A stretch of DNA of 64,000 bases from Verrucomicrobiales bacterium (GTDB taxonomy: Bacteria > Verrucomicrobiota > Verrucomicrobiia > Limisphaerales > UBA9464). Both the position numbers and the translations under genes were made by a program. Below the pieces are notes generated by a model. That model worked only from the letters and a program-made list of their open reading frames with translations, did no database searches and had not been told where the DNA came from. Where the stretch lies: positions 1,779 through 65,778 of the forward strand of contig SYEM01000120.1 of assembly GCA_005801385.1 (NCBI GenBank), read 5' to 3'. The first letter of the stretch is position 1. Every line of letters begins with the position of its first letter. Positions 4,601 to 62,980 of this stretch are shown here, one piece after another.

Positions 4601-5128
4601 ATGACCGTTCCCCAACTTCGCCACTCCCTCCGCCGACGCCGCCAGGCTTCCGGGTTCACCCTGATCGAGATCCTCCTTGTCATCGTCATCATCCTGCTCC
4701 TGGCGGGTGCGCTGGTGGTCTTCGTGCTGCCGCAGCAGAAGGGTGCCGAACGGAACACCACTCGGCTCATGCTCCAACAGGTCGCCAATGCGTTGGACAC
4801 CTATCGCCTGAACCTCGGCCACTACCCGAACGAGCAGGAGGGTGGACTCGATGCTCTCCTCAAGAAACCGACATTCGAGAATGAGCGTCTCGGCGAAAAA
4901 TGGCAGGGACCCTATCTGAAGCCGGGCACCACTCTCGACGACCCTTGGAACAACAAGATCCGCTATGAGCTCGCGGACATGACCACACAGGGACAGAACT
5001 CCGGCGCATTGCCGTACAAACTCTTCTCGGTGGGACCCGACGGGCAGCCTGACACCGAGGACGATGTGAAGCTCGCCAGCGACACTCCGGACGGCGCTCC
5101 GTCGACCGGAGGCGCGGGGTCCAACTGA
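4601..5128 (+). CDS. gspG: type II secretion major pseudopilin GspG
   Basis: Prepilin leader followed by G|FTLIEILLVIVII with Glu+5. GspG body motifs: LDTYRLNLGHYPNEQEGLDAL, WQGPYL, DPWNNKIRY, FSVGPDGQPDTEDDV. Confidence 0.9.
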   Translation: MTVPQLRHSLRRRRQASGFTLIEILLVIVIILLLAGALVVFVLPQQKGAERNTTRLMLQQVANALDTYRLNLGHYPNEQEGGLDALLKKPTFENERLGEKWQGPYLKPGTTLDDPWNNKIRYELADMTTQGQNSGALPYKLFSVGPDGQPDTEDDVKLASDTPDGAPSTGGAGSN

Positions 5129-5148
5129 TCTCCCGAGGAACTGGAGGG

Positions 5149-5946
5149 GTGATGGGTGTCCAGGGTCGACCAGAAAGGGCGACCCGGACTGGGTTGACTG
5201 GGTTCACGCTGTTTGAGCTCGTCCTGACCGTCTCCCTGATCCTGCTTCTGGCCGCCGGGGTGATCTTCGGCTGGGACTCGCTCCAACGTGGAGCTCGGCT
5301 CGAGGAAGGGGCCGACCAGGTCGAGATGCTGCTCCGCTTCGCCCGGGCCCATGCCGCCACCTCGGGTCGACTGGTCCGGATACAGGTTGGCACCCCGGAA
5401 CCGTTCCCCGGCACACCTGCCGGAACTAACTCCCCGTCGGCTTCGACCCCGATGGAGGTTTCCGGTGGATTTCAGGTGCTCTGGGAACCGGATCCCTTGA
5501 AACAGCCGGGGACTTTTGAACCGCTGCCGGGCACCGACGGGTTCCGGGAACGGATCGATGAGCTCGTGGAAGTCCAATCGCCGGAGATGGTATCACCGCA
5601 GAGGATGACGATCCTGCCTGAGACTCCGTTCGAGGAACCCGGTGGTGGCACCAACGCTGTCGCGGGAGACCCTGCCGTCTCGACAACCTCCAGCCCCGGA
5701 GCCCGGCTCCACCTCCAGATCACCTTTTACCCCGATGGCTCCAGCGACTCGGTGGAATGGATCCTCAGTTCGAAGGACCCCGAGGATGCCCGCCGACTCC
5801 GCATTCGGTTGTCGGGTCTGACAGGGACCACCCGCCGACAGTGGCTCGAGCGTCTCGATGTTACCGGCATGACGAACACGGAGTCCCCGGCGACGATCTT
5901 GGAATCCTCGGCAAGCGGGGAGCTTCTCCAGAAACCGAATCCCTGA
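5149..5946 (+). CDS. minor pseudopilin, GspH-like
   Basis: Prepilin-type N-terminus (TGFTLFELVLTVSLILLLAAGV, Glu+5). Position immediately after gspG. Pro/Ser-rich body, so the family assignment rests on position and N-terminus only. Confidence 0.6.
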   Translation: MMGVQGRPERATRTGLTGFTLFELVLTVSLILLLAAGVIFGWDSLQRGARLEEGADQVEMLLRFARAHAATSGRLVRIQVGTPEPFPGTPAGTNSPSASTPMEVSGGFQVLWEPDPLKQPGTFEPLPGTDGFRERIDELVEVQSPEMVSPQRMTILPETPFEEPGGGTNAVAGDPAVSTTSSPGARLHLQITFYPDGSSDSVEWILSSKDPEDARRLRIRLSGLTGTTRRQWLERLDVTGMTNTESPATILESSASGELLQKPNP

Positions 5947-6389
5947 TGGCCCGCTTTCCATCCAGAGGTCGGTCCGGGGCGGCGCTGCTGGAAGTGCTGT
6001 TGGCGGTGGCCCTGTTTGCGGCGGCGGCGGCGATCGTGACGAGCGCGCTCAACGCCTCGATGGGGAGTCTGGAGCGGCAACGCCTGGGTCTGCAGGCACT
6101 CAATCTGGCGGCGAGCACCCTGGCGGAGGTCCAGCTCGGCATCCGACCTTCAGTCAGCCAAGGCCAGCAACCCTTCCCGACGCCCATGGACAACTGGACC
6201 GCCGAGGTCCTCGCCTCTCCCATGGATTCGGGGGCCGCTGCAGGACCCTCCGGTCTGGTCCGTGTTGAGGTGGTGATCCGCCACCGGGAATTCCTGGTCG
6301 TTCAGCGCCTGGGAGAAGTCGTCCGAGTCCAGGCCTCCGGGACAAACATCCCGGCCGCCAGTCCGGGCTCCGGAGGCGTTGCGCCATGA
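5946..6389 (+). CDS. minor pseudopilin, GspI-like
   Basis: ATG at 5946 overlaps the previous stop by 1 nt (TGATG). N-terminus is SGAALLEVLLAVALFAAAAAIV with Glu+5. The size (147 aa) fits GspI. The 5757 start in the ORF track is a spurious extension. Confidence 0.55.
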   Translation: MARFPSRGRSGAALLEVLLAVALFAAAAAIVTSALNASMGSLERQRLGLQALNLAASTLAEVQLGIRPSVSQGQQPFPTPMDNWTAEVLASPMDSGAAAGPSGLVRVEVVIRHREFLVVQRLGEVVRVQASGTNIPAASPGSGGVAP

Positions 6390-7159
6390 ATCGGCTGCCG
6401 ACACCTCATCGGGCCGGTTTGCCACATCGTGTCGACCGGGCTCTGGCTTTTACCCTGATCGAGATCCTTCTCGCGCTGTCGATCACCGCGGTCCTGCTCG
6501 GTGTTGCCATGGTTTTCTACCGGCAGGTGGCCGACCTCAGGGGACAGGTCCTCCAGGAATCTGAACGCCTTGCCGCGACGCGCCTGGTGTTCGATCGCCT
6601 TGCTGCGGATCTTCGGTCCGCCGTACCGGGAGCCGCCTGGGGCGGTGGATTCGAGGGGGATGGATCCTCCATGGCGTTCTCACGGAGCCGTCTAGAACCG
6701 GGGGGCGCTGCTGGTGTGGTGCGGATTGCTTTCGGCCCAATCTGGGCGGTCGACGGCACCAACCTGGCGGTCCAAGGCATCGCCCGCCTGGAGAATGCCA
6801 GCATTCCGAAGCCCACCCTTCCAGTGCCTTCCCCGTCGTCCGACACCTCCACCCCCATTGCAGCCCCGGAGACGAACAGCATCGCCGAGGCCGCTACCAA
6901 TGCCCCAGTCGAGCCCCTCACCGACCAGATCCGCTATCTGCGACTCCGCTATTGGAGCGGTGCCCAGTGGTTGGATCGGTGGACCAATGGAACCACTCCC
7001 ACTGGGGTTGAGATCACCCTGGGCTGGGACCCCATCGAACCCGGGGTTGAGCCCGAGGACTACGCCGGGGAGGCGTTTCGACGGGTGATCGCCCTTCCGA
7101 CCGGCAGCCGCATCAGCCAATCCAAACCCATGGAACAGGAGGAGCTGTCGACACCATGA
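6386..7159 (+). CDS. minor pseudopilin, GspJ-like
   Basis: ATGA overlap with the previous gene. N-terminus is LAFTLIEILLALSITAVLLGV. The size and position fit GspJ. Confidence 0.55.
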   Translation: MNRLPTPHRAGLPHRVDRALAFTLIEILLALSITAVLLGVAMVFYRQVADLRGQVLQESERLAATRLVFDRLAADLRSAVPGAAWGGGFEGDGSSMAFSRSRLEPGGAAGVVRIAFGPIWAVDGTNLAVQGIARLENASIPKPTLPVPSPSSDTSTPIAAPETNSIAEAATNAPVEPLTDQIRYLRLRYWSGAQWLDRWTNGTTPTGVEITLGWDPIEPGVEPEDYAGEAFRRVIALPTGSRISQSKPMEQEELSTP

Positions 7160-7461
7160 CCTGGCCCCGTGTTCTTGGTGTCCTCGGGATGACCTGGCCC
7201 CGGCGGGGTGGTGCCGGGGAGGAATCGTACTTTGACCTGTCCCCAAACCCTCGACCTTGGTGCCCCTGCATCAGGCGAGGGCCTGTCCCCAAGCCACACC
7301 ATGGCCTGTCCCTAGACCCATCAGTGGCATCGGCGGCCGGCGACCCGGTCCTCGCACAGATGACCTGGCCCCGTACCCCATGGCCCCGACCCCCAAAGGC
7401 TGATGGCCTGTCCCCCTGGTCCCAAACCCTCAACAGCCTCAGGGACAGATGACCTGTCCCC
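7157..7461 (+). repeat. cluster of 8 same-orientation copies of the 12-nt motif TGRCCTGKCCCY, inserted between gspJ-like and gspK-like
   Basis: Copies start at 7157, 7190, 7233, 7279, 7302, 7361, 7404 and 7450. Spacing 43/46 recurs twice, indicating a degenerate ~171-nt higher-order unit (7190->7361). The 11-mer CCCAAACCCTC is also shared (7242, 7421). Confidence 0.75.
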
Positions 7462-8972
7462 CAATCCATCATCAGCGAGGAGGACCGGCGCGTCGGGGCT
7501 TCGTTCTGCTCGCCGTCCTTGTCTTCATTCTGCTGATCTCCATGGTGACGGTCAGTCTGCTGTTCCGAAACCGGGCCGAAGAGACTGCCGCCGCGGCCAG
7601 CGGCAGCCTGGAACAGTCGTGGTCGGCCGCCTTCAGTGGGGTCCAGCAGGCCGTTGAGATGGCCTCGGCGGCACGGAGTGGGGCCATGGACTGGGCGGAC
7701 AACCCGTCGGTCTTCCAGGAACGGCTGGTCTTTGAGGACGGTTCCGACCGCTGGTTCTTCAGCGTGTTCTCGCCCGGTGACAGTGAGTCCACGACCGATG
7801 TCCGATTTGGACTCACCGACCTCGCCTCCCGGATCAACGTCAATCAGCCCGGCGGTGCAGATCTTGCCAAGATTCCCCGCATGACCCCGGAGACGGTGCA
7901 GTTCCTGAGGGCGCGACTCGGCCAGGCACCCCCACCAACCTTGGCCATGGCGGATTCCCCTTCCGAACCTCTGGGCGAACCTATCCCGAACGCAATGGCG
8001 GATCCGGATGCGCCCATGCTGTCGTCCACCAACACCCTTCCGGTTCCTGTCCTCCGAAGGATTGGCCGAGTCGACGCCGTTGAGGACCTCCTGGACACTC
8101 CGGGCCTCTCTACGGAGCTCCTGCTGGGCGAGGACACCAATCTCAACGGGCGCCTCGATCCGAACGAGGATGATGGCGACGAGAGCCCGCCCGGGGACAA
8201 CCGGGATGGGCGCCTGGACCATGGCATGGCCCAGTATTTCGCCGTGGGTTCGACCGATCCGGATCTGACCGCCGCGGGTAAACCCCGCCTCGACATCAAC
8301 CAGGCCAGTATTGTCCTGCCCGAAAAGGGTCTTCCCCTCGCGTTCACGAACTATCTCGCGGCCCTTCGACGCACGAACCGCCGCCTCACCCATCCGGTCG
8401 ACGCCTTGGAGGATGTCGTGCGAACTACGGATGAATCGGGTGCGCCGATCGAGATTCCCTCGGGCATCACCCGCGAGGAACTGCCACGGTTGCTGGATCT
8501 GTTCACCGTTCAGAGCTCCGGCACGACGGCCGCCCGGGAGGGTTTGATCAACCTCAACACGGCGAGTTCGATCGTCCTCGCCACCCTGCCCGGGATGGAT
8601 CTCCCCACCGCGGAATCCATTGTGGCCGCCCGGGAGGGACTCCGCGCGGAACAGCGGTCAACGCCGGCTTGGCTCCTCACCGAGGGCCTTCTCGATCTAC
8701 CGAAATTCAAGGCCGTTGTGCCGCATCTGACCACCCGGGCCTACCAGTTTCGCTTCCATGTCATCGGATACGCCCTGCCGTCTGGCCGATATCGGGTCCT
8801 GGAGGCCGAGGTGGACGTCTCGGGGGAGACGCCCGTCCTCACCCGCCTCCGGGATCTCACCCGGCTGGGACTTCCCTTCAATCTTTCGCCCGAGACACTG
8901 GAACAATCCCCCCCGGCCGGGGCACACTGGGTGCCTCGATCCGGACACAGCACGAAACGCATCCATGGCTGA
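7449..8972 (+). CDS. GspK-like minor pseudopilin
   Basis: N-terminus is RRGFVLLAVLVFILLISMV with no Glu+5, as in GspK. The size is large (507 aa). Contains helix-hairpin-helix-like segments (INVNQPGGADLAKIPRMTPETV; INLNTASSIVLATLPGMDLPTAESIVAAR). Confidence 0.6.
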   Translation: MTCPPIHHQRGGPARRGFVLLAVLVFILLISMVTVSLLFRNRAEETAAAASGSLEQSWSAAFSGVQQAVEMASAARSGAMDWADNPSVFQERLVFEDGSDRWFFSVFSPGDSESTTDVRFGLTDLASRINVNQPGGADLAKIPRMTPETVQFLRARLGQAPPPTLAMADSPSEPLGEPIPNAMADPDAPMLSSTNTLPVPVLRRIGRVDAVEDLLDTPGLSTELLLGEDTNLNGRLDPNEDDGDESPPGDNRDGRLDHGMAQYFAVGSTDPDLTAAGKPRLDINQASIVLPEKGLPLAFTNYLAALRRTNRRLTHPVDALEDVVRTTDESGAPIEIPSGITREELPRLLDLFTVQSSGTTAAREGLINLNTASSIVLATLPGMDLPTAESIVAAREGLRAEQRSTPAWLLTEGLLDLPKFKAVVPHLTTRAYQFRFHVIGYALPSGRYRVLEAEVDVSGETPVLTRLRDLTRLGLPFNLSPETLEQSPPAGAHWVPRSGHSTKRIHG

Positions 8973-10614
8973 CCGCACACAGCTGATCGAAGGGCTTCTG
9001 AAACGGTTCGGGCTCCGAAGGGAACCCCGGCCGAAGATGCCCTCGCAGATCACCGCGCTCGACCTCGAGGGACTCACCCTCCGGGTCGTTCAGACGCGCT
9101 CGCGTGGGGTCATCGGACAAGTGGTCTCCGGAGCCCTTGAGCTGGCTCCCGAGGCGGATCGGAACGACCCCACGATTCTGGGTGCGGCGCTGCGACGGAC
9201 CGTGAACCTGCTTGGAATCCGACCCGCCGCCGTCGTGATGGGTGTGCCGCGCGCTCGGGTCGTCCTGAGGACCCTGACCGTTCCGGAAATTAGCCGCGTG
9301 GATGAACTGGCTTCGTTGGTCCACTTCCAGGTCGCCAAGGACCTGCCCTTTCGCCTCGAGGAGGCGGTCATCGACTTCAGGGTGCTGCGTCGGATCGTGC
9401 CGACCGGTGAGACCGCCCCGACGAAGGATCCGGTTCAGGCTTCCGGGGCTTCCGGGTCCAACAAGCTCGAGGTGCTGGCGGCGGTGGTGCGGCGGGACGA
9501 GGTCGACTCCTACCAGAAACTGGCGGATGCCGCTGGGTTCCGGCTGGTGGGACTTGGACTGCTCCCCGACGCCAACGCGCGCTGCATCCAAGCCTGTCGG
9601 CTCGAAGCCTCCCGGGATGCGACGGCCCTTGTGACGGTCCGGCCCGAGGAGGTAGGTGTCGACATCATGGTGGATGGGGCCCTGCGCTTCAGCCGTGGTG
9701 GGGCGCTTCGTCCGTCGGGTGATGCCGCATCCTCCGACGGCTGGGTTGGCTCTGCCGCGATCGAAGTGGTCCGCAGCCTCCATAGCTATGGTGGCATGGG
9801 CAATGAGGCGCCGATCGGCCGGATTCTGGTCACTGGATGCACCGGACAGGAGCCTGCGGTGGTGGAGGCCCTTGCTTCGCGGACTCCGACACCCTGCACG
9901 GTGCTCGACCCCGGTGTGTCTCTGGATCTTGCCTCGGATCTGCACAAGGAATCCGCCGGGGCGGTTGCCCCAATCGGACTGGCCCTTGGCATTGGGGACG
10001 CCGACGGACTCCCTCTCGATTTCGTCAACCCGAAGCGACCCGCGGTGCCGCGGGACTATCGACGTCTCGCCCTTCTCGGAGGCACTGCCGCTGCCGTTGT
10101 CCTCCTCGTCGCCGTGCTCGGAACCCGGTCGTGGCTGCTCAACCGCCGCAACGCCGTCCTGCAGGCGGTCAACGCCGAGCTGGCCGATGCCGAGAAGAAA
10201 CGACCTGTCTACCAGAAGCTCACCCGCCAGACCGCCGTGGTGGAGGACTGGGTCCGGGGAGAACGGGATTGGCTTGACCACTACGCCTACCTGACGTCGG
10301 TCTTGCCACCGAGCGAGGAGATCTATTTGGGCTCGATCGCCGTTTCGGGACCCAACGCCATCCGCCTCGCCGTCCAGGCCCGCAGCGGTGAGACGCTGGC
10401 CCGGTTGGAAAAGCAGCTCGTCGCGGCCGGATACGAGGTCAAACCCATCGCGATCACTCCGGGAGCCGACCGCTTCGGCTACGAGTTCCGCTCCAACGTG
10501 GAGGTCCTGGTTCCCGCCAAGCTCAAGATCGATCTCCACAAGGTGAAGCCCCCCACGCGGCCGATCGACGATGTGTCCCTCGACACCGCGGCCTGGAAGA
10601 AAGGAGTCCAGTGA
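8965..10614 (+). CDS. GspL-like protein (PilM-like cytoplasmic actin-fold domain + TM + PilN-like periplasmic domain)
   Basis: ATG at 8965 overlaps the gspK-like stop by 8 nt. The N-terminal ~350 aa resemble PilM (ITALDLEGLTLRVV..., LVHFQVAKDLPF). A single TM lies at ~10066-10125 (LALLGGTAAAVVLLVAVLG). A coiled-coil and ferredoxin-like periplasmic tail follow. Confidence 0.65.
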   Translation: MADRTQLIEGLLKRFGLRREPRPKMPSQITALDLEGLTLRVVQTRSRGVIGQVVSGALELAPEADRNDPTILGAALRRTVNLLGIRPAAVVMGVPRARVVLRTLTVPEISRVDELASLVHFQVAKDLPFRLEEAVIDFRVLRRIVPTGETAPTKDPVQASGASGSNKLEVLAAVVRRDEVDSYQKLADAAGFRLVGLGLLPDANARCIQACRLEASRDATALVTVRPEEVGVDIMVDGALRFSRGGALRPSGDAASSDGWVGSAAIEVVRSLHSYGGMGNEAPIGRILVTGCTGQEPAVVEALASRTPTPCTVLDPGVSLDLASDLHKESAGAVAPIGLALGIGDADGLPLDFVNPKRPAVPRDYRRLALLGGTAAAVVLLVAVLGTRSWLLNRRNAVLQAVNAELADAEKKRPVYQKLTRQTAVVEDWVRGERDWLDHYAYLTSVLPPSEEIYLGSIAVSGPNAIRLAVQARSGETLARLEKQLVAAGYEVKPIAITPGADRFGYEFRSNVEVLVPAKLKIDLHKVKPPTRPIDDVSLDTAAWKKGVQ

Positions 10615-11612: not shown

Positions 11613-11956
11613 GAAGGATGCCCCCCGCAATGCCCCCATTCCTCGCAGGAAAACCCGCTGTCGGCGATACAGCTGGTGTCGCTTTTGGGTCCCGTGGTGC
11701 CGAGGGTATCGGTGGGTGCTGCAGTGCCCTGCAGCACTCGGTGCGCCAGCATCCACCCACCCCGGGTGCATCCTCTGACTCGGGCTTTGGTGACTCCGAA
11801 CCGCAGACTTCCGATCACGCCTCCACCCCACCAGCGCTCCACGCTGGGACTTTGGCTCTCCTTCCTCCGCTCTTCCGGGTGAATAAACCCGCACAACTCC
11901 CCCGTCCCCAACCCGGTTTGCGGGACGTACCCTTCCGACTCCCGTTTCCTGTTCCC

Positions 11957-17900: not shown

Positions 17901-20900
17901 CCGTCCAGGAGGTCCTCCGGATCGTCGAGGAACTCGACCAGGACGGACCCGGCAGCGGCGACATCGAGGTTCGGATCTACAAGCTCGAGAACGGCAACGC
18001 CCGCGAGGTCTCCACCGTCATCCAGCAGCTCCTCCAGTCGGTCTCCCGAAATCTCTACCGGCGGTCCGGCGGTGGAGAGGGCGACGGCGGTCGCAGGAAC
18101 GCCTCCGTCAGCGTGTCGATCGACGAGCGCTCCAACAGCCTCATCATCTCGGCAACCGAGTCCCACTTCCGGATGGTCGACAAGGTCCTGCCGACCCTCG
18201 ACAAGGCCCCGGAGCGTTCCGATCGTGACGTCCAGTTCGTCTGGCTGAAGAAGGCCAAGGCCTTCGACCTCGCCATGAAGCTCGAAAGCCTTTTCGAGGA
18301 TCGCCCCCGTGCCGATCGTCCGGTGATCGAACCCGACTCCGCGTCGAACTCGCTCACCATCATCGCCAAGCGTGGCGACATCCCGCAGATCCAGGACCTC
18401 GTCTCGCGGCTCGACGATCAGGGGCGTGATTCGGCGGTGCTGGTCCGGGTGCGTCCGCTCGAGCGGGTCACCGCCGATCAGATGGCGACGATGCTCCAGA
18501 ACATCTATCCGCAGGTTTCCGGGACCCCGCTCCGAGTGACCGACAAGGTCGAGCCTCCGAAGAACGCCGACCCGAGCACCCAGACGACCAGCCCTGAGGT
18601 GGTCATCGCGGTCGACAAGCCTGCCAACGCCCTGATCCTGTCCGGCCCCGCCCAGGAACTCGACGCAGTCGAGCGCCTCATCGGCGAGCTGTCCCTGAAC
18701 TTCTACGGCAACGAGGCCGAGTTCCGCGTCTTCGCGATCAAGGATGCCGATCCGGTGGTGGTCGCCCGGACCCTGCAGGAACTCCTCAAGATGGATCCGG
18801 TACAGATCGAGGACGCCCGTGGACAACCCAAGATCATCACGCCGCAGAACAAGATCACGGTCGTGGCGGAACCCCGCACCCGGAGCCTGATTGTCCGGGC
18901 ACGTCCGACCGACTTCGCGCTGATGGAATCGCTCATCAAGCAGCTCGATACGGCCGGCCAGGTCGCCCAGCTGGAGTTCAAGGTCGTGCCTCTCACCCAT
19001 GCGGCCCCCGAGAAGATCCTGCCGCTCGTCCAGCAGATGGTGACGCAGCTGACCGCCTCGCGCCCCGGCGATCCAGTCACCGTCGCGGTCGATTCCCGCG
19101 GACGCGGCATGCTGGTCATCGCCCGCGGCATCACCGCGGCCCAGGTTGAGAAACTCATCCAGTCCCTCGACAAGCCCACCGCCAATGTCGAGGCCGAGGT
19201 CGAGATCGTGTCCCTCAAGAAGGCCAACGCGGGTCAGCTGGCTGCTGTCCTCCAGGGCATGCTCCGGCCTGGGGCCGCTGGGGATTCCTCCCCCGAGGCG
19301 CGAGAACTCCAGGAACACATCCGCCGCCTTAAGGTCCGCAATGCCAGGGGCGACACCGTGCTGCTCGATCTCTCCAAGCCGATCCGCATCGCCACGGATC
19401 CCGTCGCCGGCACCGGGGGCGGCAACCGCATCATCCTGACCTCCACCACCGACAACCTCCGGGCCCTCAAGGCCGTGGTGGAGCAGATGGACTCCGTTGC
19501 CGTCCTCGAAGGAGTGAAGGTCCGGTTCATCCAGCTCGAGAATGCCGATGCCGCCGCGGTGTCCCAGACGCTGAACAACGTGTTCTCGCAGGCGAAGAAC
19601 CTCGCCATCGGCCCCGGCGGTCCCGGCGGTCAGCCGGCCGACCAGGGCAAGGCGCTCGTCCAGCCCCTAAACGTCGCCATCGATGCCCGCAGCAACACCC
19701 TCATCCTGAGCGGCCATCCCGAGAGTCTCGACCTCGCCCAGAAGATCGTGGCCGACATGGACAAGGAGGTCTTCCTCTACACGACCGACGTCCGGCTGTT
19801 CCGTCTGAAGCACGCGTCCGCTGCCCGGCTTCTGCCCCTCCTGCAGTCGGTCTTCACCGAGGGTACCGCGGTCCCTGGAACCGAGGGTCTCTCGACCCAG
19901 ATCACCCGGCTCAGGACCCTTCGGGATGGCACCAAGGCCCAGTCCAACCAGACTCCGAAGAACCGGCCGGCGCTCACCATCCAGGCCGACGACCAAGCCA
20001 ACATCCTCGTCGTCGCCGCGCGCAGCGACAATCTGCCCCTCATCGCCGACATCATCGAGCAGCTCGACATCCCGGCCGCCTCGGGACTGGAGACCGTCCG
20101 GGTCTACCCGCTGGAGCACTCGGATCCCGCCGCCGTTCAGAAGGTCCTCTCGGATCTCTTCACCGGACCGCGGTCGACCACGCTCCGCAACGAAGACCGT
20201 CCGGTAATCACGGTCGATGCCCGGACGGGCTCGCTCATCGTCGCCGGCAACAGCAAGGCCTTTGCGATCATCGAAGGGCTGCTCAAGAGTCTCGACCAGA
20301 AGCTGCCCTTCGATCTTCGCGACATCGCGCTCATCCCGTTGGAACATGCCGACGCCAACGTCGTCGCCCCGACCCTCCAGAAGCTCATGGACGCCCGGGT
20401 GACCCAGCGGGCGAGCCTCAACCAAGGGCAGGCCGAGGCCCTCAAGGTCATCATCATGGCCGACCAGCGCAGCAATGCGCTCCTCGTCGGCGGTGCCCGC
20501 GAGGGATTTGAACTGGTGCAGACCCTGGCCAAGCAGCTCGACCAGGCGGCACCGGCACTGAGCGGGCGGGTCCGCCTCATCCCACTCGAGTTTGCCGATG
20601 CCCGCGTTGTGGCCAGCACCCTCGCGACCCTCTTCGAGCAGCGCTACGCCGCGATCCGCACCGCGGACATGCAGCGCAACAAACCGATCATCCTTGCCGA
20701 CACCCGGAGCAACTCCCTCCTCGTGGCCGCCAGCCAGGAGGACAACCGGACGCTGGACGATCTCCTGAAGCGCCTCGACGCCAAGCAGGACAACCCGGCT
20801 CTCACCCTCACGGTGATTCCGATGCGGTTCAACGACTCCGCCCGGGTGGCCACCATGCTCGAAAGCCTCTTCGCAGCTCGCCAGAAGGCCCAGCTTCTCC

Positions 20901-23770
20901 CCGGAGGCACTCCACTTCCGAGCGACCAGATCAAGGTCGAGACCGATGCCCTCAACAACGCGCTCATCATCTCCGCCAGCAAGGAGAACCTCGAACTCGT
21001 CCGGGAACTCGTCGCCAAGGTCGACCAGGAACCCACCATTGCCGGAGGCGTGTTCGAGATGTTCACGCTCGAGTTCGCCGACGCCACCCGGGTGTCGACC
21101 CTCCTGAAGTCCCTCGTCGACCAGGGCCTCTATCGTCCGGGTCGCCCAGCCAATGCCGCGGCGAGGGCCGGCAATTCGAGCCGCGACGTCCTCTCCGTCA
21201 GCGTCGATCCCCGGTCCAACACGCTGATCGTCAGTGCGAGTCCCGAGAACCTCAGCATCGTCCGTGAGGTGGTGAAGCGTCTCGACACCAAGGATCTCGC
21301 CGCCAACGCGGACGTCCGCCTCTACCCGCTCAAGAACGCCCGCGCCAGCACCCTGGCGGCCACCCTCCAGCAGTTCTTCCAGGCCAAACGCACCGCCGAT
21401 GCCGTCGCGGTCAACGCCAACGAGCGGACCATCGCCACCACGGTCCTCGCCGACGATCGGATCAACTCCCTGATCGTCACCGGTGGGAAGGAGGCGTTCG
21501 ACCTCATGGATCGGATGCTCCCGCAGATGGACGGTGAAAGCGTTTTCTCGAAGCTGAACTTCCGGGTGTTCCCCCTGAAGAAGGCCACGGCCCTCAAGCT
21601 GCAGGCCACGCTCCAGCCGATCTTCGCGAATCGCCCGCCCAAGGTTCGGGGTGAGCCGGTTGACCCAATCACCATCATCGCCGACCAATGGATCAATGCC
21701 CTCCTCGTCGGTGCGACGGTCGAGGATCTCAGCACCGTTGCCGGCCTGATCGAGAAGCTCGACAGCGACCCCGCGGAGACCGGCATCGCCATCCACGTCT
21801 TCCCGCTCCAGAAGGCCGACGCCACGAAGGTAGTCGCCACGGTCCGGGGACTGTTCCGCGACAACCTCCCGAACCAGGTCGTTCCGATCACGGTCACTGC
21901 GGATGAGCGCATCAACGCGATCGTGGTGTCCTGCGGCGAGACCGATGCCCAGCGGATCGGTCAGCTGGTGCAGAAGCTGGATACCGACCAGGTGGCCAAG
22001 GTCAGTGAGATCAAGGTGTTCCCGCTCCAGTTTGCCAGGGCCGAGTCCCTGGCGGGTATCCTGAACACGGCGCTGAACACCAAACCCGCCCCGCTCAACG
22101 ACCAGGCGCCCAATGCGCAGTCCGTTCTCCAGTTCATCACCCGGACGACCGAGGGACAGGAGCTTGTCACGGCGGCGCTCAAGGAATCGGTGCTGATCAC
22201 ACCGGACCAGCGGATGAACTCCCTCGTCGTCTCCGGGCCAGTCGACTACATGGGGCTGATCGAGCAGATCATCCAGCGCATGGATGCCAGCTCACCCCAG
22301 CTGGCCAAGATCAAGGTCTTCGCCCTCCAGAATGCCGATGCCCGACAGATGGCGGAGGTGATCACCCAGATGTTCCGCATGACCCCGACGGCCGGGACCG
22401 GATCCACCCGATCGGTCCAGTATACTCTGGTACGGGGCAAGGCCGAGAACGGGACGCCTTCGGAGGAGCCGCTGGCCTCGGCGACGCTGGGGACAGCGGA
22501 GCAGACCGCCCTCACGGTGACGGTCGATCCCCGGACCAACAGCCTTCTGGTGGGTGGCACGGAGCACTACATGAACCTGGTGTCGCAGCTGATCGACACC
22601 CTCGACTCCAGTGCGGCCCATGAACGGGCGTCCGAAGTCATCCGGCTGAAGAACTCGCAGTCCCCGGAGATCGCGACTGCGATCCGCAACTTCCTCGACC
22701 AGGAACGCCAGAAGCTCATCCAGTCGCTGGGGGTCGATGCGGTCTCCGCCACGGCCCGTCTCTTTGACCAGGAAGTCGCGATCGTCGCCGAACCCACCAG
22801 CAACACGATCCTCCTCTCGGCGAATAACCGCTATTTCGAGCAGATCCGGTCGATGATCGACGAGCTGGACTCCGCGCAGCCCCAGGTGTTGATCCAGGTG
22901 CTGCTGGCCGAGGTGCGTCTCGACAACCAGACCGACCTCGGGTTCGAGTGGACCTACCGCGGCACGGCAGGAAGCAGCACCTACGGGATCGGGACGGATT
23001 TCTCGCCGGACATCGACATGGCCAAGATGAGCGGCCTCGTCGGCGGCATGCAGGGCGGGGACTTCTCCTTCCTCCTCCGGGCGCTCAAGACCCAGGGCAA
23101 GCTGCACGTCCTGAGCCGCCCCCAGATTGTCACGGCCGACAACAAGCCAGCCACCATCAACGTCGGCAAGAAGGTGCCCCTCGTGGAGCAGACCCGCCTG
23201 GACGCCCAGAACAATCTGACCACCCAATACCGCTACGAGGACGTCGGTGTGAACCTGACCGTCACACCGAAGATCAGCCGGGATGGCTTCGTGAAGATGG
23301 AGATCAGTACGACCAACAGCACGCTGTCGGCACAGATCATCGACATCAACAAGTCGGCCCAGGCCCCTGTGGTCGACCAGCGGAAGGCCAACACCACGGT
23401 GAGTGCCCAGAGCGGCCAGACCATCGTCATCGGGGGTCTCATCGACACCATCAACGAGACCAACATGCGGAAGGTGCCGGTCCTTGGGGACATTCCCTAC
23501 CTGGGCGTCCTCTTCCGGACCACTAGCACAAAGAAGGAGCGGAAGGAGCTGTTGATCCTCATGACCCCGATCGTCTTGGACAACTCCCAGGTCCCGGTGA
23601 AGCTGACCGATCCGGATCGGGTGCTCCGGGACAACCTGGACAACGCGGACATCAAGCAGATCATGCGGGAGGGCGACATGCAGCGCCGCATCCTGGAGCC
23701 GTATTATCGGACCAATCGCCCCTCCTGGCGGGAGAACCAGATCAGGACCAACCCGGCACCGGCGCTATGA
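11957..23770 (+). CDS. gspD: giant secretin (GspD family), 3,937 aa: signal peptide + N0 + ~43 tandem N1-type Secretin_N domains + secretin core + C-terminal tail
   Basis: ATG 11957 gives the signal peptide MIRPFLLGAVLSTAPHLLAQD. N0 lies at ~12108-12330 (IRFQFDGIPYTDVIERFAQMAGKPLL...LRVVPF). The array at ~12407-22870 repeats the unit '[VI]R[VI]xxLKxAxAxxLxxxLxxL...D.R[ST]N.L[IV]V.[AG]....(L)..[IV]..L[IV]..LD'. The secretin core lies at ~22883-23580 (QVLIQVLLAEVRLDN, LSRPQIVTADNKPATINVG, VGVNLTVTPKIS, VPVLGDIPYLGVLFR, ELLILMTPIVL). Confidence 0.9.
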   Translation: MIRPFLLGAVLSTAPHLLAQDAAKSNAPSAGPEVVVRGNAPSAPVAAAPRNIRFQFDGIPYTDVIERFAQMAGKPLLSDTNVVGTLTYDDPNAYTYTEALDTLNLMLAMKGVMLLEDGNNLRVVPFKNLQAMPLRILRGTEPATDIRPNEVVTVVLDSKNLDSKEITESILPMLSQAGSVAPLGRGRGLIVTDRLANIQRVKSLLATIGSEQAAERQMRSYTLLNASGAIVSDLLNRTFGVSTAPKRTSYNPNTKAMEVLPADPNDYITSVYDEASRTLVLFGPTERLELAEELINKFEQKDGAAGDVRIYNPQTIKSEELAAMIRQAIPGVAAPGETGSAAATKARVIADNAQNRLIVAAPLPGQLDQIEQLITRVDKGLVGAEGLARDNTPVPNKAQAVQLTRIFRPRATEATNVSTILRQALTRKEKTGQVVTTASVTFDPGSQSVVVTGTPTDLQTAADIVSQLETGTSQPTQLITRFIEVGSPEEARRIQPLVEQLYKNQTADGSTSTVAHAKILSDTQTGRLIVTASADHLRRIEDLVTQLQADKPQVKARDLRVIPLKNSRTEIALPQIQSLVNERMADRRFSSLPKPSIVADAANNRLLVTATADQLKEIDAVIDIVDTQPAQAERELAVLPLQAKPAAEVLPLVTQLLGQLSTQGSPTPTVMADPTGKQLIVLATSKDQDRIRTLVKQFDVSPATAAPRQFKGVELYGRTATEFTPLVQQLYQEQLRGQPEPAGGAATLLSETKNNRIMVSGSDREIARVESIIRQLDPAERKSDRDETRVIRLRSASAADLAGLVDKSLNAQSQQVKVLTDTRSNSLVVTGSASAVEAAAKMIQQLDSRPESGPREMRVIELKSADARALETTVATLFGDLMKDQRGANYVATAKITADPVSNRLIATGDAADLEIIAGIVNRLDNSPQQAPGARVFKLNQADAVVMAPIVASAMTRFDQRGQPVKRVSITADEKSNSLIVSGSRTDLQDVESVIEKLDGGESSQAPRTLKILEVKGDPDALAALINKSFAAQNPGRNIAGLFTLTPDPSNKRLIVFASPTMLAQVESLVATLDARPDQGTRELHPVALKNATPSELLPRVQQIYAEQSHGKTLKPATLYPDAAGNRILVQGTSEQAEAVRQITSTLESEPKPSRESKVFDLGKLSEAQRLMPLIQQLYRDQLSSTPQLGSPDAQIVSDGKTGRLLVSARADQLPILEGIVQRLQSTATTGTSARETRTVEVGSSTEASRLVPLIQQLYQDRWKDRLDTDPADAQILADPRNGRLILTGKPEHLTQIEAIIQQLGPIKTGAGTRQTRIIDLTTASAVELASTVRTLYLEEAKGRLGNQPPDTVLTPDPGGNRLIVVGDTNELAAVERLVAQLDKVSSQSASARVFKIKSADPEKVAEILNTSLVRYDAYGRAQKRSTVSVDPKTRTLIVTGDPKELQGVSVIIEQLDQSLGSQPERKTRVVTLKQGKAATLSPKIRQLYADRIKSLPELGTSDILILEEPESNQLIIAGNDAQLQVVTQIVDEVQSAQVQRAARETQMVSVGTVDELNRLQPLVQQLYNDRFRGRDASDPADASIIADGKNARFILTGRTNQLREIENIIAKLRGGAPESVTRDTRIIDLTSANAVELVPTLRTLYQEQVKNRPGSFAADTLITPDVNGNRLILTGATNELALLEDLIQKLDKVGAQSASTRVFKVKSADPDKVVEILGTALVRYDAYGRPQKRVSVVTDSKTRTIIATGDPKELQSASVIIEQLDSSLGASAGRTMRVLPVKERRAGELLPKVRQLYQDQARNNPEFGTTEPLLIEDSASNQIIVAGNERQLGTLEEIVGVLQNVASVQGARQVKVFNLERTTANTLVTMISQVYARQLTNAEPTERVVVGAGGNERTLVVEAPAATLTRIEELVKNLDQDGPEGQNVIQTVKLKRGRADDLADAVNRVMTNRALPGMIRRVSVTSVAGANSLLLNGPTNAVQEVLRIVEELDQDGPGSGDIEVRIYKLENGNAREVSTVIQQLLQSVSRNLYRRSGGGEGDGGRRNASVSVSIDERSNSLIISATESHFRMVDKVLPTLDKAPERSDRDVQFVWLKKAKAFDLAMKLESLFEDRPRADRPVIEPDSASNSLTIIAKRGDIPQIQDLVSRLDDQGRDSAVLVRVRPLERVTADQMATMLQNIYPQVSGTPLRVTDKVEPPKNADPSTQTTSPEVVIAVDKPANALILSGPAQELDAVERLIGELSLNFYGNEAEFRVFAIKDADPVVVARTLQELLKMDPVQIEDARGQPKIITPQNKITVVAEPRTRSLIVRARPTDFALMESLIKQLDTAGQVAQLEFKVVPLTHAAPEKILPLVQQMVTQLTASRPGDPVTVAVDSRGRGMLVIARGITAAQVEKLIQSLDKPTANVEAEVEIVSLKKANAGQLAAVLQGMLRPGAAGDSSPEARELQEHIRRLKVRNARGDTVLLDLSKPIRIATDPVAGTGGGNRIILTSTTDNLRALKAVVEQMDSVAVLEGVKVRFIQLENADAAAVSQTLNNVFSQAKNLAIGPGGPGGQPADQGKALVQPLNVAIDARSNTLILSGHPESLDLAQKIVADMDKEVFLYTTDVRLFRLKHASAARLLPLLQSVFTEGTAVPGTEGLSTQITRLRTLRDGTKAQSNQTPKNRPALTIQADDQANILVVAARSDNLPLIADIIEQLDIPAASGLETVRVYPLEHSDPAAVQKVLSDLFTGPRSTTLRNEDRPVITVDARTGSLIVAGNSKAFAIIEGLLKSLDQKLPFDLRDIALIPLEHADANVVAPTLQKLMDARVTQRASLNQGQAEALKVIIMADQRSNALLVGGAREGFELVQTLAKQLDQAAPALSGRVRLIPLEFADARVVASTLATLFEQRYAAIRTADMQRNKPIILADTRSNSLLVAASQEDNRTLDDLLKRLDAKQDNPALTLTVIPMRFNDSARVATMLESLFAARQKAQLLPGGTPLPSDQIKVETDALNNALIISASKENLELVRELVAKVDQEPTIAGGVFEMFTLEFADATRVSTLLKSLVDQGLYRPGRPANAAARAGNSSRDVLSVSVDPRSNTLIVSASPENLSIVREVVKRLDTKDLAANADVRLYPLKNARASTLAATLQQFFQAKRTADAVAVNANERTIATTVLADDRINSLIVTGGKEAFDLMDRMLPQMDGESVFSKLNFRVFPLKKATALKLQATLQPIFANRPPKVRGEPVDPITIIADQWINALLVGATVEDLSTVAGLIEKLDSDPAETGIAIHVFPLQKADATKVVATVRGLFRDNLPNQVVPITVTADERINAIVVSCGETDAQRIGQLVQKLDTDQVAKVSEIKVFPLQFARAESLAGILNTALNTKPAPLNDQAPNAQSVLQFITRTTEGQELVTAALKESVLITPDQRMNSLVVSGPVDYMGLIEQIIQRMDASSPQLAKIKVFALQNADARQMAEVITQMFRMTPTAGTGSTRSVQYTLVRGKAENGTPSEEPLASATLGTAEQTALTVTVDPRTNSLLVGGTEHYMNLVSQLIDTLDSSAAHERASEVIRLKNSQSPEIATAIRNFLDQERQKLIQSLGVDAVSATARLFDQEVAIVAEPTSNTILLSANNRYFEQIRSMIDELDSAQPQVLIQVLLAEVRLDNQTDLGFEWTYRGTAGSSTYGIGTDFSPDIDMAKMSGLVGGMQGGDFSFLLRALKTQGKLHVLSRPQIVTADNKPATINVGKKVPLVEQTRLDAQNNLTTQYRYEDVGVNLTVTPKISRDGFVKMEISTTNSTLSAQIIDINKSAQAPVVDQRKANTTVSAQSGQTIVIGGLIDTINETNMRKVPVLGDIPYLGVLFRTTSTKKERKELLILMTPIVLDNSQVPVKLTDPDRVLRDNLDNADIKQIMREGDMQRRILEPYYRTNRPSWRENQIRTNPAPAL
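15662..17510 (+). repeat. intragenic tandem duplication of a ~924-nt (4 N-domain) block inside the secretin gene
   Basis: Block A (~15662-16585) and block B (~16586-17510) align colinearly at protein and DNA level. Examples: TRIIDLTTASAVELASTVRTLY / TRIIDLTSANAVELVPTLRTLY; ARVFKIKSADPEKVAEILNTSLVRYDAYGRAQKR / TRVFKVKSADPDKVVEILGTALVRYDAYGRPQKR; GDPKELQGVSVIIEQLD / GDPKELQSASVIIEQLD. Confidence 0.75.
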
Positions 23771-24258
23771 GGGAACGCAGGCGGCGGACAGTGATTTGGA
23801 TCGTGGTCCTGTCGGGACTGGCCGTGCTGACCGGATGTGCTGGCCTCTCGACCGGTGGACGATTGACCGAGCTGCATCTCTTTGGCGTGCCGGTGGCGCT
23901 GAATCTGGGGTCGAAATCCGGACCCGACGGCATCGGGCTTCGTCTCTATGCCAGCACGGCCGACGTGGCCAAGGGGATCCCGATCCGGGACGGTGTCCTG
24001 GAAATCCTGATGTTCGACGGAACCGTCGGGGAGGCCTATGCGCGGTCGGAGAAACCACTCAAGACGTGGTCGTTCACGGCCAGTCAGCTGGGAGCCTTCG
24101 CCGGGACATCGTCCCTCGGTGTCGGCTATCAGTTCCCTCTCCGCTGGGGAGCGGATGTGCCCCGTCAGCCGGTCGTGACGGTGATCGCCCGCCGTGTGGC
24201 GCCGAACAAATCGGTGACGTGGTCTACGGCCACGACGATCTCGATTGTCACCCGGTAA
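23767..24258 (+). CDS. small lipoprotein, translationally coupled to the secretin (candidate pilotin)
   Basis: ATGA overlap with the secretin stop. The N-terminus MRERRRRTVIWIVVLSGLAVLTG|C carries a lipobox (LTGC). 163 aa, with no recognisable family. Confidence 0.6.
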   Translation: MRERRRRTVIWIVVLSGLAVLTGCAGLSTGGRLTELHLFGVPVALNLGSKSGPDGIGLRLYASTADVAKGIPIRDGVLEILMFDGTVGEAYARSEKPLKTWSFTASQLGAFAGTSSLGVGYQFPLRWGADVPRQPVVTVIARRVAPNKSVTWSTATTISIVTR

Positions 24259-24280: not shown

Positions 24281-25045
<765 letters not shown>

Positions 25046-25649: not shown

Positions 25650-25689
25650 ACCTCCTTCCCGTCTTCACCCCGCCCACAATTCCCCATCC

Positions 25690-62948: not shown

Positions 62949-62980
62949 GGGAAGGAAGTCTTTGGCAGTGCCTTCTGGAA

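Follow-up and report, generated by a model that had tools for sequence, protein, structure and literature searches.

Whether an array of type II secretion system (T2SS)-like genes that comes without genes for an ATPase, a platform protein, a prepilin peptidase and GspC is a compact secretion system of its own kind, as originally predicted, or one part of a larger machine is the question raised by positions 4601-24258 of the stretch of DNA analyzed here (64,000 nucleotides from a Verrucomicrobiales bacterium; hereinafter, the window). This region is the larger half of a T2SS-like machine, a verrucomicrobial one that is found order-wide. The features relevant to the argument are the following:

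4601-5128, + strand: gspG, major pseudopilin (175 aa; prepilin motif G↓FTLIE)
5152-5946, + strand: gspH-like minor pseudopilin (264 aa; GFTLFE motif)
5946-6389, + strand: gspI-like minor pseudopilin, tentative (147 aa; Glu5 present)
6386-7159, + strand: gspJ-like minor pseudopilin (257 aa)
7160-7448, + strand: J-K spacer (290 nt; about five degenerate copies of the K-start motif RATGACCTGKCCCC)
7449-8972, + strand: gspK-like minor pseudopilin (507 aa; prepilin-like N-terminus GFVLLA)
8965-10614, + strand: PilM(N) fusion, a PilM-type actin-like cytoplasmic domain followed by a transmembrane (TM) segment, a coiled coil and a predicted ferredoxin-like periplasmic domain (549 aa)
10611-11612, + strand: PilO/P fusion, a PilO/GspM-like protein (TM segment, long helix, ferredoxin-like domain, Pro-rich linker) with a putative C-terminal PilP/GspC-HR-like beta domain (333 aa)
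11957-23770, + strand: giant secretin (3,937 aa; N0-like domain, about 43 N-domain repeats of 75-80 aa, C-terminal secretin domain)
23767-24258, + strand: small lipoprotein (163 aa; lipobox LTGC; ATGA overlap with the secretin stop)
24281-25081, - strand: DUF1559 prepilin-type protein, convergent neighbour (PF07963 N_methyl, 34.7 bits; PF07596, 25.5 bits)
61884-63272, - strand: PilT/PilU-family ATPase (likely start near 62948)

All nine system ORFs are intact and occupy the + strand at the predicted positions, with the predicted overlaps: TGATG at 5944-5948 (H stop and I start), ATGA at 6386, 8 nt at 8965-8972, GTGA at 10611 and ATGA at 23767. The order G-H-I-J-K-PilM(N)-PilO/P-secretin, likewise anticipated, is kept in all of the approximately 60 species-level loci that are long enough to show it; these relatives, counted here at the species level, are Limisphaerales/Pedosphaera-like Verrucomicrobiota. 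The 4-nt overlap between the PilM(N) and PilO/P genes also recurs in the ORFs called in relatives, and in close relatives, with proteins 82-99% identical, the start/stop overlaps are preserved. Such conservation of synteny and overlaps is not due to chance. The compactness attributed to the locus holds for the overlaps but not as uniform packing, given the J-K spacer and a 344-nt gap before the secretin gene. The spacer contains direct repeats, and the motif RATGACCTGKCCCC has 10 matches in the window vs. 1.4 expected; an ORF at 7156-7452 (98 aa) spanning this spacer has homologues only in relatives at least 95% identical, with flat GC content across codon positions, and probably is no gene. 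Promoter and terminator scans remained at chance level.

At the distal end, the small lipoprotein directly follows the secretin in seven close relatives (82-94% identity). It matches no Pfam or NCBIfam family, and a search of metagenome contigs recovered, apart from close relatives, a single 32% match that is unrelated; our guess is that it might be a pilotin or an accessory protein. The DUF1559 protein is found at the same position in two related loci (L084 and L085), and its membership in the secretion system is uncertain. A protein of this prepilin type would require the same prepilin peptidase.

Pseudopilins, inner-membrane platform and secretin

Family assignments were made at the Pfam and NCBIfam/TIGR model thresholds, with equivalog cut-offs for the TIGR models. 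By this standard, GspG, PilM and the secretin score above cut-off, the H-like product passes the Pfam cut-off only, the I-, J- and K-like products fall below, and the PilO/P fusion matches no model. The major pseudopilin is a clear GspG (TIGR01710 equivalog, 101.9 bits vs. a cut-off of 88.85; PF08334 T2SSG, 76.9 bits) and is 67-90% identical in relatives. The gspH-like product reaches 27.7 bits with PF12019 (GspH; cut-off 21) and remains sub-threshold with TIGR01708, and its family profile, compared with the PDB, matches pilin N-terminal helices only and nothing GspH-specific, so that its assignment is carried in part by position. For the gspI-like product (TIGR01707, 28.7 bits, under the cut-off of 44.35; no PDB match of the family profile), position and size point weakly to GspI. 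The gspJ-like product is sub-threshold with PF11612 (T2SSJ, 21.5 bits), and its family profile retrieves EpsJ/GspJ structures (E 1.9e-4 to 1.5e-3). The gspK-like product likewise is sub-threshold with NF037980 (T2SS_GspK, 40.4 bits), scores 22.5 bits with PF03934 and 29.7 bits with HHH_3, and by family profile matches XcpX/GspK (5vtm, E 3.5e-4); its homologue in locus L106 contains PF21687 (T2SSK_1st). This product has Ala at position 5 and lacks the Glu5 that is present in G, H, I and J; GspK proteins typically lack Glu5. The best matches of the H-, I-, J- and K-like products, most of them under the family cut-offs, fall in the right gene order.

The product at 8965-10614 is a PilM protein, as predicted: PF11104 (PilM_2) scores 52.7 bits vs. 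a cut-off of 27, and the family profile matches PilM structures over residues 19-367 (3jc8_M, E 5.5e-24; 5eox, E 1e-16). For its last 190 aa, an AF2 model (pLDDT 79), for which the alignment was built from a database search, yields Foldseek matches to PilO, to 5hl8 (a membrane protein of the pullulanase T2SS, TMt 0.80) and to the periplasmic domains of XcpY, EpsL and PulM. The model thus supports a ferredoxin-like periplasmic domain of the GspL/GspM/PilN/PilO class and, with it, a GspL architecture of the whole protein, i.e., a PilM-PilN fusion. The profile of these 190 aa matched nothing in the PDB, and an hhalign comparison with the N-terminal region of the PilO/P fusion, looking for PilN/PilO-type paralogy, gave a probability of 4% over TM segments only; because hhalign detected no such homology, it is the fold that carries the PilN-like call. 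No locus product matches T2SSL, GspL_C or T2SSM in the Pfam and NCBIfam searches. Hence the GspL equivalent is PilM, not GspL, at the sequence level, and the likeness to GspL and GspM is one of fold, in the periplasmic domain only.

The PilO/P fusion belongs to a family that has no model in Pfam or NCBIfam. In an AF2 model (pLDDT 79), its PilO part is matched by Foldseek to PilO (3jc8, E 6e-4; 2rjz and 5uvr, probability 1.0) and to Amuc_1100 (probability 1.0). For the C-terminal beta domain, PilP is the only consistent fold match (3jc8 PilP, probability 0.89; 2lc4 PilP, 0.69; a further match, 0.35). When the family profile was compared with PDB sequences, the best match was a urease (E 0.16), and the profile of the C-terminal domain by itself matched nothing; Pfam PilN, PilO and PilP have no match in any locus product. 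The claim that the GspC function is fused to GspM/PilO is thus upheld for the PilO-like fold, and for the PilP/GspC-HR domain at the fold level, with modest Foldseek scores, but not by any sequence-level signal; we modestly favour a PilP/GspC-HR-like identity for this domain. Membership of the products at 8965 and 10611 in unrelated families would count against the predicted architecture; the former is PilM, and the latter combines a PilO-like fold with no match in either database. A separate GspC gene (TM segment plus HR plus PDZ or coiled coil) was not detected in the window or the related loci, nor was a PDZ domain. The fusion has 651 homologues at 58-94% identity, and the family comprises 842 clusters at 50% identity, nearly all of which match over the full length. 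Because this family lacks a Pfam or NCBIfam model, standard annotation and TXSScan-type searches will score such systems as incomplete.

The secretin ORF is open from 11618, and a signal peptide follows the ATG at 11957; GC3 is 0.59 over 11618-11956 vs. 0.86 in the body of the gene. The start is most likely this ATG, which leaves the 344-nt gap after the PilO/P gene. The protein contains a secretin domain (PF00263, 166 bits), 39 stretches matching Secretin_N (PF03958) and a sub-threshold N0 match (18.9 bits); an HMM built from the secretin itself finds 43 N-domain repeats, far beyond the usual range. A typical GspD has an estimated 650 aa and domains N0-N3, so that the protein is about six times the usual size. 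Pfam matches include no AMIN domain. An origin of the giant ORF as a tandem-repeat or assembly artefact was ruled out: TRF found no DNA tandem repeat in the gene, and long ORFs are present in relatives as well, still open past 3,000 aa in 42 related loci and encoding proteins of 3,892 and 4,025 aa in distant relatives. In three related loci (L004, L052 and L075) the ORF is apparently interrupted. The module of PilM(N), PilO-PilP-like fusion and giant secretin is present in every related locus examined, and neither such a system nor a secretin with N-domains in the dozens turned up in the open-access literature searched.

In GspD structures, an N-domain ring measures an estimated 3 nm. It is conceivable, albeit on balance doubtful, that the three proteins of this module form a conduit across the periplasm whose length is many times that of any secretin described so far, >100 nm at about 3 nm per ring, with the fused PilP-like domain as a clamp between the platform in the inner membrane and the distal N0 ring. 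If so, the long conduit would show either that the T2SS has adapted to a verrucomicrobial periplasm of unusual width or compartmentalisation, or that N-domains have been put to a new use.

Motor genes and prepilin peptidase

The 64-kb window and the 12 kb that precede gspG on the source contig were searched for gspE, gspF and a prepilin peptidase gene, and none of these was detected. The expectation that E and F lie elsewhere proved correct: a gspE-gspF pair, recognized by Pfam MshEN, T2SSE and T2SSF and intact, is located on a separate contig within the same metagenome assembly (k141_629905 of ERZ27257033; locus L105), with unrelated genes on both sides. The same split is seen in GCA_006365115.1, with E-F on VFQT010000416.1 and the distal end of the operon on VFQT010000048.1; nucleotide identity is 94-95% for the operon pair and, in parallel, 96% for the E-F pair. 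From the shared assembly and this parallel divergence, we infer that the E-F contig and the window belong to one genome. Among the candidate GspE proteins, P0421 and P0419 led to the wanted contigs; P0414, P0410, P0412 and P0409 came from other samples and were discarded, the P0410 contig carrying another E-F pair with no gspG within 450 nt after F.

In 35 of the 45 related species loci with sufficient flanking sequence, gspE-gspF lie directly upstream of gspG, whereas they are absent from this position in the other 10. Thus the motor genes, which are not beside gspG in this genome, are so in most relatives, and the separation of E-F is a lineage-specific rearrangement. Distant family members keep E-F within the array, one of them with the whole E-to-D set and the 3,892-aa secretin. 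The order gspE-F-G-H-I-J-K-pilM(N)-pilO/P-gspD, the most common one, would then be ancestral, with E-F detached in the present lineage.

In the relatives L034 and L009, GspE scores 606-610 bits with the GspE model vs. 562-565 with PilB, and GspF 319-323 bits with the GspF model vs. 213-226 with PilC, the scores with TIGR02533 and TIGR02120 being just under the equivalog cut-offs. These GspE proteins contain an MshEN domain and the c-di-GMP motif NF053729 (44-45 bits vs. a cut-off of 38); the MshEN domain, known from MSH pili, binds c-di-GMP. The window was predicted to encode no ATPase, which is accurate for an assembly ATPase but not for ATPases at large, given the PilT/PilU-family protein at 61884-63272. 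Its scores, 380.7 bits with TIGR01420 (cut-off 319.1) and 121.9 bits with the GspE model, far under the cut-off of 630, led us to reject it as the missing GspE. A prepilin peptidase was not found by Pfam among the scanned window ORFs, nor in the gene tables of the upstream contig and the E-F contig; in other systems, too, the gene for this enzyme is often unlinked.

The closest known systems and competing readings

Proteobacterial T2SS (Gsp/Eps/Xcp/Pul) share with the present system the GspG-type major pseudopilin, a tentatively assigned set of H-I-J-K-like minor pseudopilins whose K-like member has no Glu5, and a motor of the GspE/GspF type, which adjoins the operon in relatives and is detached from it in this lineage. 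They also share a secretin that combines N0-like, N- and secretin domains, a bitopic L-like protein (actin-like in the cytoplasm, ferredoxin-like in the periplasm) with an M-like partner, and the gene order E-F-G-H-I-J-K-L-M of gsp operons. In contrast to these systems, the L equivalent is PilM by sequence, the place of a separate GspC is taken by an HR/PilP-like domain fused to the M/PilO-like protein and devoid of PDZ, the secretin gene comes after those for the platform and not before E, the ATPase carries MshEN, and the genes occupy two loci. Scattered T2SS genes are known in Legionella (PMC4793230).

The PilMNOPQ proteins of type IVa pili (Pseudomonas, Myxococcus) resemble the locus in a PilM by sequence, in PilN/PilO-class and PilP-like folds, and in the order M-N-O-P-Q when the fusions are taken to be M+N and O+P. 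In this genome the module is also encoded at a distance from the ATPase gene, and the same is true of pilMNOPQ in Pseudomonas and Myxococcus. Unlike in those pili, M-N and O-P each form one polypeptide, the PilP-like part is no separate lipoprotein, the secretin shows no AMIN domain in the Pfam search, the subunits of the filament are of Gsp type and include no PilA-type major pilin, and most relatives encode the ATPase and the platform protein in the same array.

Within the Verrucomicrobiota, the Amuc_1098-1102 cluster of Akkermansia muciniphila places a secretin beside a PilM-like protein (Amuc_1101) and a PilO-fold protein (Amuc_1100). However, a relationship is not detectable by sequence: the model of the Amuc_1101 family, NF045709, scores 21.5 bits vs. 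650, and the PilO/P profile misses Amuc_1100 in the PDB. Amuc_1100 has been reported at the cell surface or in outer-membrane pili-like structures and is not described as a platform protein (PMC5332112), and the papers considered here do not describe a many-domain secretin for Akkermansia. The generic and chimeric type IV filament systems and the atypical T2SS of Chlamydiae and Bacteroidetes, as characterized in the parts of a survey considered here (Denise et al., 2019; PMC6668835), are similar in that they are found outside Proteobacteria and match profiles of different filament types, with a peptidase that is perhaps shared or encoded elsewhere. The chlamydial systems, according to the same parts, lack minor pilins and GspLM, whereas the locus described here encodes L/M equivalents and, by tentative assignment, all of the minor pilins; those parts mention neither a PilO-PilP fusion nor a multi-domain secretin.

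Taken together, these comparisons make it likely, in our judgment, that a machine of the type IV filament superfamily, closest to the T2SS, is encoded in two loci in a Limisphaerales/Pedosphaera-like host, positions 4601-24258 being the distal one. By analogy with established knowledge of T2SS and type IV pili, GspE with its MshEN-type N-terminus and GspF, encoded elsewhere, would drive pseudopilus assembly from GspG, with priming by the H-, I-, J- and K-like proteins. The PilM-TM-ferredoxin fusion, in the place of GspL, would link the ATPase to the periplasm, and the PilO-like protein would pair with it as GspM and PilO do. The fused PilP/HR-like domain, in the place of a GspC or PilP protein of its own, could dock on N0 at the extreme N-terminus of the secretin. 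The approximately 43 N-domains might make up a very long vestibule or tether in the periplasm under the outer-membrane gate, and the lipoprotein may help in secretin targeting.

An unlikely alternative is a type IV pilus-like machine that exposes a fibre of GspG-like subunits at the surface, perhaps retracted by the PilT-family ATPase of the window, and secretes no protein. Such a machine would account for the PilM-type platform with its PilO- and PilP-like folds and for the match of the PilO/P N-terminal domain to Amuc_1100, the Akkermansia cluster having been called pilus-related (PMC5332112, PMC10688800), as well as for the MshEN domain in the ATPase of relatives. Nevertheless, it is at odds with a major subunit that passes the GspG equivalog cut-off, with minor subunits that best match GspH, I, J and K, including a K without Glu5, and with E and F proteins that score higher on Gsp models than on PilB and PilC models; it also has to contend with the absence of AMIN among the Pfam matches of the secretin and with the negligible score of the Amuc_1101 family model. 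As for the PilT-family ATPase, it is encoded in the same window, but about 38 kb from the cluster and not in synteny with it in related loci.

We regard it as very improbable that the G-to-D genes are a decaying remnant, unused and drifting after the separation of E-F. The junk-like spacer of duplicated junction motifs, the gap before the secretin gene and the three apparently interrupted secretin ORFs in relatives are what decay might leave behind, but all nine ORFs, including the 11.8-kb secretin gene, and the E-F pair are intact, the coding GC3 signal is strong (0.86 in the secretin), and protein identity and overlaps are maintained in close relatives. Finally, a self-contained compact T2SS variant defined by its own lack of ATPase, platform, peptidase and GspC genes can be virtually dismissed: although gspE, gspF and gspO are missing from the window and the adjacent 12 kb, and E-F from the side of gspG in 10 of the 45 related loci, the pair adjoins gspG in the 35 others, belongs to the array in distant family members and occurs in the same assembly on a contig other than that of the window, contrary to the predicted definition of a distinct variant by missing E and F.

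Implications for verrucomicrobial secretion

The preferred interpretation of the locus as one part of a two-locus, T2SS-related machine carries a caution, namely that the ATPase apparently missing from this one window reflects a local rearrangement and no new principle. What is unusual, judging from the family scores, is the combination of a PilM-type platform with pseudopilins, an ATPase and a platform protein that score best as Gsp. Knowledge of the T2SS is almost wholly proteobacterial, and these Verrucomicrobiota are abundant freshwater and soil degraders of polysaccharides. They would possess a widespread, differently built version of the T2SS, in which four platform functions appear to reside in two polypeptides (L as PilM+N; M and C as PilO+P) and the outer-membrane channel is predicted to have about 43 ring-building domains vs. 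the usual three or four. Such a system poses the structural question of how the giant secretin fits the verrucomicrobial envelope and would offer a natural experiment on which contacts in these machines are essential, above all those between HR/PilP and N0 and between L and M.

Gene layout and genomic setting

The open reading frames named in the original prediction are all present on the forward strand:

4601-8972 (+): pseudopilin genes G, H, I, J and K
8965-10614 (+): fusion protein MN, 549 aa
10611-11612 (+): fusion protein OP, 333 aa
11957-23770 (+): giant secretin, from its probable start
23767-24258 (+): lipoprotein, 163 aa

The reported start/stop overlaps are real (TGATG between H and I, ATGA between I and J, 8 nt between K and MN, GTGA between MN and OP, ATGA between the secretin and the lipoprotein), and the anatomy originally proposed is largely right, apart from the J-K spacing of 290 nt and the probable secretin start at 11957. 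The J-K spacing is occupied by a 98-aa ORF (7156-7452), present only in relatives of at least 95% identity, which shows flat codon-position GC and consists of RATGACCTGKCCCC, the K start motif that includes the gspK start codon, in about five degenerate direct copies; within the window this 14-mer has 10 occurrences (with at most two mismatches) vs 1.4 expected. The ORF looks like a duplicated junction, the product of repeated local duplication, rather than a gene. Some gene callers accept this spurious ORF.

Among the pseudopilins, G scores 101.9 bits with the GspG equivalog model, above its cut-off of 88.85, and H, I, J and K find their best matches, in that order, in GspH, GspI, GspJ and GspK, mostly under the curated cut-offs. 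Family profiles built from relatives connect J with EpsJ/GspJ structures (E 1.9e-4) and K with XcpX/GspK (E 3.5e-4); those for H and I matched nothing specific among structures. At position 5 of the mature prepilin, G, H, I and J carry Glu and K carries Ala, the missing Glu5 being a known GspK signature.

The window DNA comes from k141_277106, a contig of 75.6 kb in the ENA metagenome assembly ERZ27257033. The window's GC content is 64% throughout, and the homologues of its proteins bear labels such as Verrucomicrobiota, Limisphaerales and Pedosphaera. It also encodes sulfatases, DUF1559 prepilin-like proteins and a DUF7133-cytochrome c protein, typical content of the PVC superphylum. Other genes in the window include the following.

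24281-25081 (-): DUF1559 protein with a prepilin-type N-terminal methylation motif, convergent with the directly adjoining lipoprotein gene (+)
35614-36450 (+): DUF1559 protein with the same type of motif
42690-43466 (+): DUF1559 protein with the same type of motif
61884-63272 (-): PilT/PilU-family ATPase (TIGR01420 above cut-off), true start likely near 62948
62981-63898 (-): TPR protein, with the PilT/PilU-family ATPase gene directly downstream

The three DUF1559 proteins require a prepilin peptidase, and they could share the cluster's machinery as its clients or substrates. Just downstream of the cluster lies an NfeD-like and FloA flotillin-like gene pair (24870-26718, +), whose position is kept in two close relatives (L084, L085). 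Elsewhere, a 615-aa protein (32826-34673, +) has GreA/GreB N- and C-terminal domains confined to residues 450-598, and its N-terminal extension of about 450 residues matched no family.

Fused platform proteins and the giant secretin

MN scores above the Pfam cut-off for PilM_2, and its family profile aligns over residues 19-367 with PilM structures from M. xanthus (E 5.5e-24) and P. aeruginosa (E 1e-16 to 3e-18); no GspL structure is among the matches. An AlphaFold2 model of the last 190 residues (pLDDT 79) shows a transmembrane helix, a coiled coil and an alpha-beta-beta-alpha-beta-beta domain, for which the best Foldseek matches are PilO and the pullulanase-T2SS membrane protein 5hl8 (TMt 0.80), together with the GspL periplasmic domains of XcpY, EpsL and PulL and the C-terminal domain of PulM (TMt up to 0.75). 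Given the PilM match and the GspL/GspM-type periplasmic fold, MN has the architecture of GspL, with a cytoplasmic domain of PilM type.

OP has no match in Pfam, NCBIfam or PDB sequences. In its model (pLDDT 79), a transmembrane helix continuous with a long one is followed by a ferredoxin-like domain and, after a disordered linker rich in Pro, by a beta domain of six strands. Foldseek matched the first part of OP to PilO (3jc8_O, E 6e-4; 2rjz and 5uvr, prob 1.0) and to Amuc_1100 (prob 1.0). For the beta domain, PilP gave the only recurring matches (3jc8_P, prob 0.89; 2lc4, 0.69; 2ivw, 0.35), and these values, together with the lack of a sequence-level match, make the PilP/GspC-HR-like assignment a modestly supported one, at the level of predicted fold. 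Searched in full with HMMER, 1.84 billion representative proteins gave 842 clusters matching the OP profile at E <=1e-3 and 212 at E <=1e-30; nearly all matches span positions 1-331 and come from proteins 330-450 aa long, and the O-P fusion is thus the rule in the family.

The secretin frame is open for 4,050 codons before a start is chosen. The start is probably ATG 11957, where the signal peptide MIRPFLLGAVLSTAPHLLAQDA begins and which one assembly's gene caller picked; GC3 is 0.59 upstream of it vs 0.86 downstream. The resulting protein of 3,937 aa, preceded by a 344-nt gap, contains a C-terminal Secretin domain (Pfam, 166 bits), 39 Secretin_N stretches and a sub-threshold N0 match, and an HMM built from the secretin itself resolves 43 repeats spaced 72-106 residues apart. 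TRF detected no DNA-level tandem repeats in the gene; the repeats are therefore old and diverged, and an assembly artefact is ruled out. The adjoining product, 163 aa long, matched no family; it has a lipobox (LTGC).

Invariant core and mobile gspE-gspF module

The OP family profile was run against GTDB species, each represented by one genome, and gave 112 confirmed matches. Of the 80 loci retained, most carry the label Verrucomicrobiota, Limisphaerales or Pedosphaera, and some come from bins that are clearly mislabelled. Several GTDB representative MAGs are titled Klebsiella, Bifidobacterium, Akkermansia muciniphila, Proteobacteria or similar (L031, L047, L050-L052, L056, L058, L059, L061, L066, L083); carrying the verrucomicrobial operon, they look like mislabelled bins. 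The order and orientation G-H-I-J-K-MN-OP-secretin are identical in every sufficiently long locus. In 54 loci the fetched DNA ends before the ORF that follows OP has closed, and in 42 of these that ORF already exceeds 3,000 aa. Unlike these 54, three loci (L004, L052, L075) have, after the OP gene, a secretin frame that closes early, with a length of 622, 1,227 and 184 codons, respectively; frameshifts, assembly errors or real pseudogenes could account for this.

Two distant members of the OP family were inspected. One has the layout E-F-G-H-I-J-K-PilM(616 aa)-OP-secretin(3,892 aa); the other (L108; JGI 3300042261, Ga0451520_0000024) has E-F-G-PilM(675 aa)-OP-secretin(4,025 aa), with no H-K between G and PilM. 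Thus, PilM(N)-OP-giant secretin is the invariant core, and E-F and H-K are modules that can move. They are shuffled between lineages, as in L108, with no H/I/J/K at that place, and in L018, where E-F has the opposite orientation to gspG.

When the window's PilT-like ATPase was used as a query against the loci, many of them proved to have a T2SSE-type gene immediately before gspG. The ATPases studied further include two from operon-linked loci, on a complete 7.9-Mb chromosome (OZ260084.1; L034) and in a relative with 76% OP identity (L009), and one from a detached E-F contig (L105).

L034, 928-2598: GspE-type ATPase, 556 aa
L009, 462-2132: GspE-type ATPase, 556 aa
L105, 6180-7850: GspE-type ATPase, Pfam MshEN recorded

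The first two score 606-610 bits with GspE vs 562-565 with PilB, and the accompanying platform proteins (417-421 aa) 319-323 bits with GspF vs 213-226 with PilC. Both ATPases have an N-terminal MshEN-type c-di-GMP-binding motif (NF053729, 44-45 bits, cut-off 38). The presence of such a motif in the GspE-type ATPases of this family suggests that the machine may be under c-di-GMP control.

Sequence of more than 3 kb upstream of gspG is available for 45 loci; E and/or F lie there in 35, and neither does in the other 10, including the window's two closest relatives (L004, L006). Since the loci without adjacent E-F are spread over identities from 59% to 98%, detachment more than once is suggested. 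Within the window, a search for E and F homologues found none, and the 12 kb upstream of gspG on the source contig hold sugar-modification and glycerol-utilisation genes. A database search with the L009 GspE, followed by gene-context look-ups, traced the detached pair to a 61.7-kb contig (k141_629905; L105) of the same assembly, ERZ27257033, where the GspE-like protein P0421 is followed after 13 nt by a 400-aa GspF, with genes for an SDR, an AP-endonuclease-2-fold protein and an MFS transporter upstream and a convergent S9 peptidase gene downstream. An identical context surrounds P0419 on VFQT010000416.1 of NCBI assembly GCA_006365115.1, which also contains the closest relative of the operon's distal end (VFQT010000048.1). 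DNA identity between the two assemblies is 94-95% for the operon-bearing contigs and 96% for the E-F contigs, with agreeing GC (0.65 vs 0.64). The simplest reading, drawn from co-occurrence and not from a scaffold, is that two closely related organisms each have a G-to-D locus and a detached E-F locus. The original prediction that E and F lie elsewhere has become an observation, and its framing of the system as an ATPase-less variant is wrong. In GCA_006365115.1, an ISL3-family transposase gene (L101, 1219-2367) precedes the detached pair by about 6 kb, and the region aligning with L105 begins only beyond it; the transposase is possibly related to rearrangements around the pair.

A detached E-F pair and an unlinked peptidase gene are ordinary in the light of previous surveys, in which scattered loci, e.g., in Legionella, defeat co-localisation rules and very few T2SS are found outside Proteobacteria (Abby et al., PMC4793230), and of the account by Denise et al. 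(PMC6668835) of "generic" and chimeric TFF systems and of prepilin peptidases that are often shared or encoded elsewhere. We found no description in the open-access literature of a secretin with dozens of N-domains, of an O-P fusion or of this verrucomicrobial system.

Proposed mechanism and predicted function

By analogy with the solved T2SS and T4aP machines, GspE/GspF would polymerise GspG on an H/I/J/K-like tip complex, with MN connecting the ATPase and the periplasm in the manner of GspL. The ferredoxin-like domain of MN would pair with that of OP, as in GspL-GspM and PilN-PilO, and the C-terminal domain of OP would bind secretin N0, as do GspC-HR and PilP. Because N0 is at the N-terminal end of some 43 N-domains, stacking of these domains would place the platform-secretin contact very far from the outer-membrane gate, more than 100 nm at the rise of about 3 nm per N-domain ring estimated from GspD structures. 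The N-domains may stack, fold back or stay flexible, the point of greatest interest in this machine.

A pilus-like function is possible, given the PilM-type platform, the fold similarity of OP to Amuc_1100 and the PilT-family ATPase elsewhere in the window. Retraction ATPases are not among the parts of a classical T2SS. The Akkermansia cluster containing Amuc_1100 has been described as pilus-related (PMC5332112, PMC10688800). On the other side, G, E, F, J and K show Gsp affinity, which speaks for secretion; sequence alone cannot decide between the two.

The cluster is a type IV filament machine, T2SS-like, whose platform is fused and of PilM type and whose secretin is giant; it is kept in every related locus examined and is split into two loci in this lineage.
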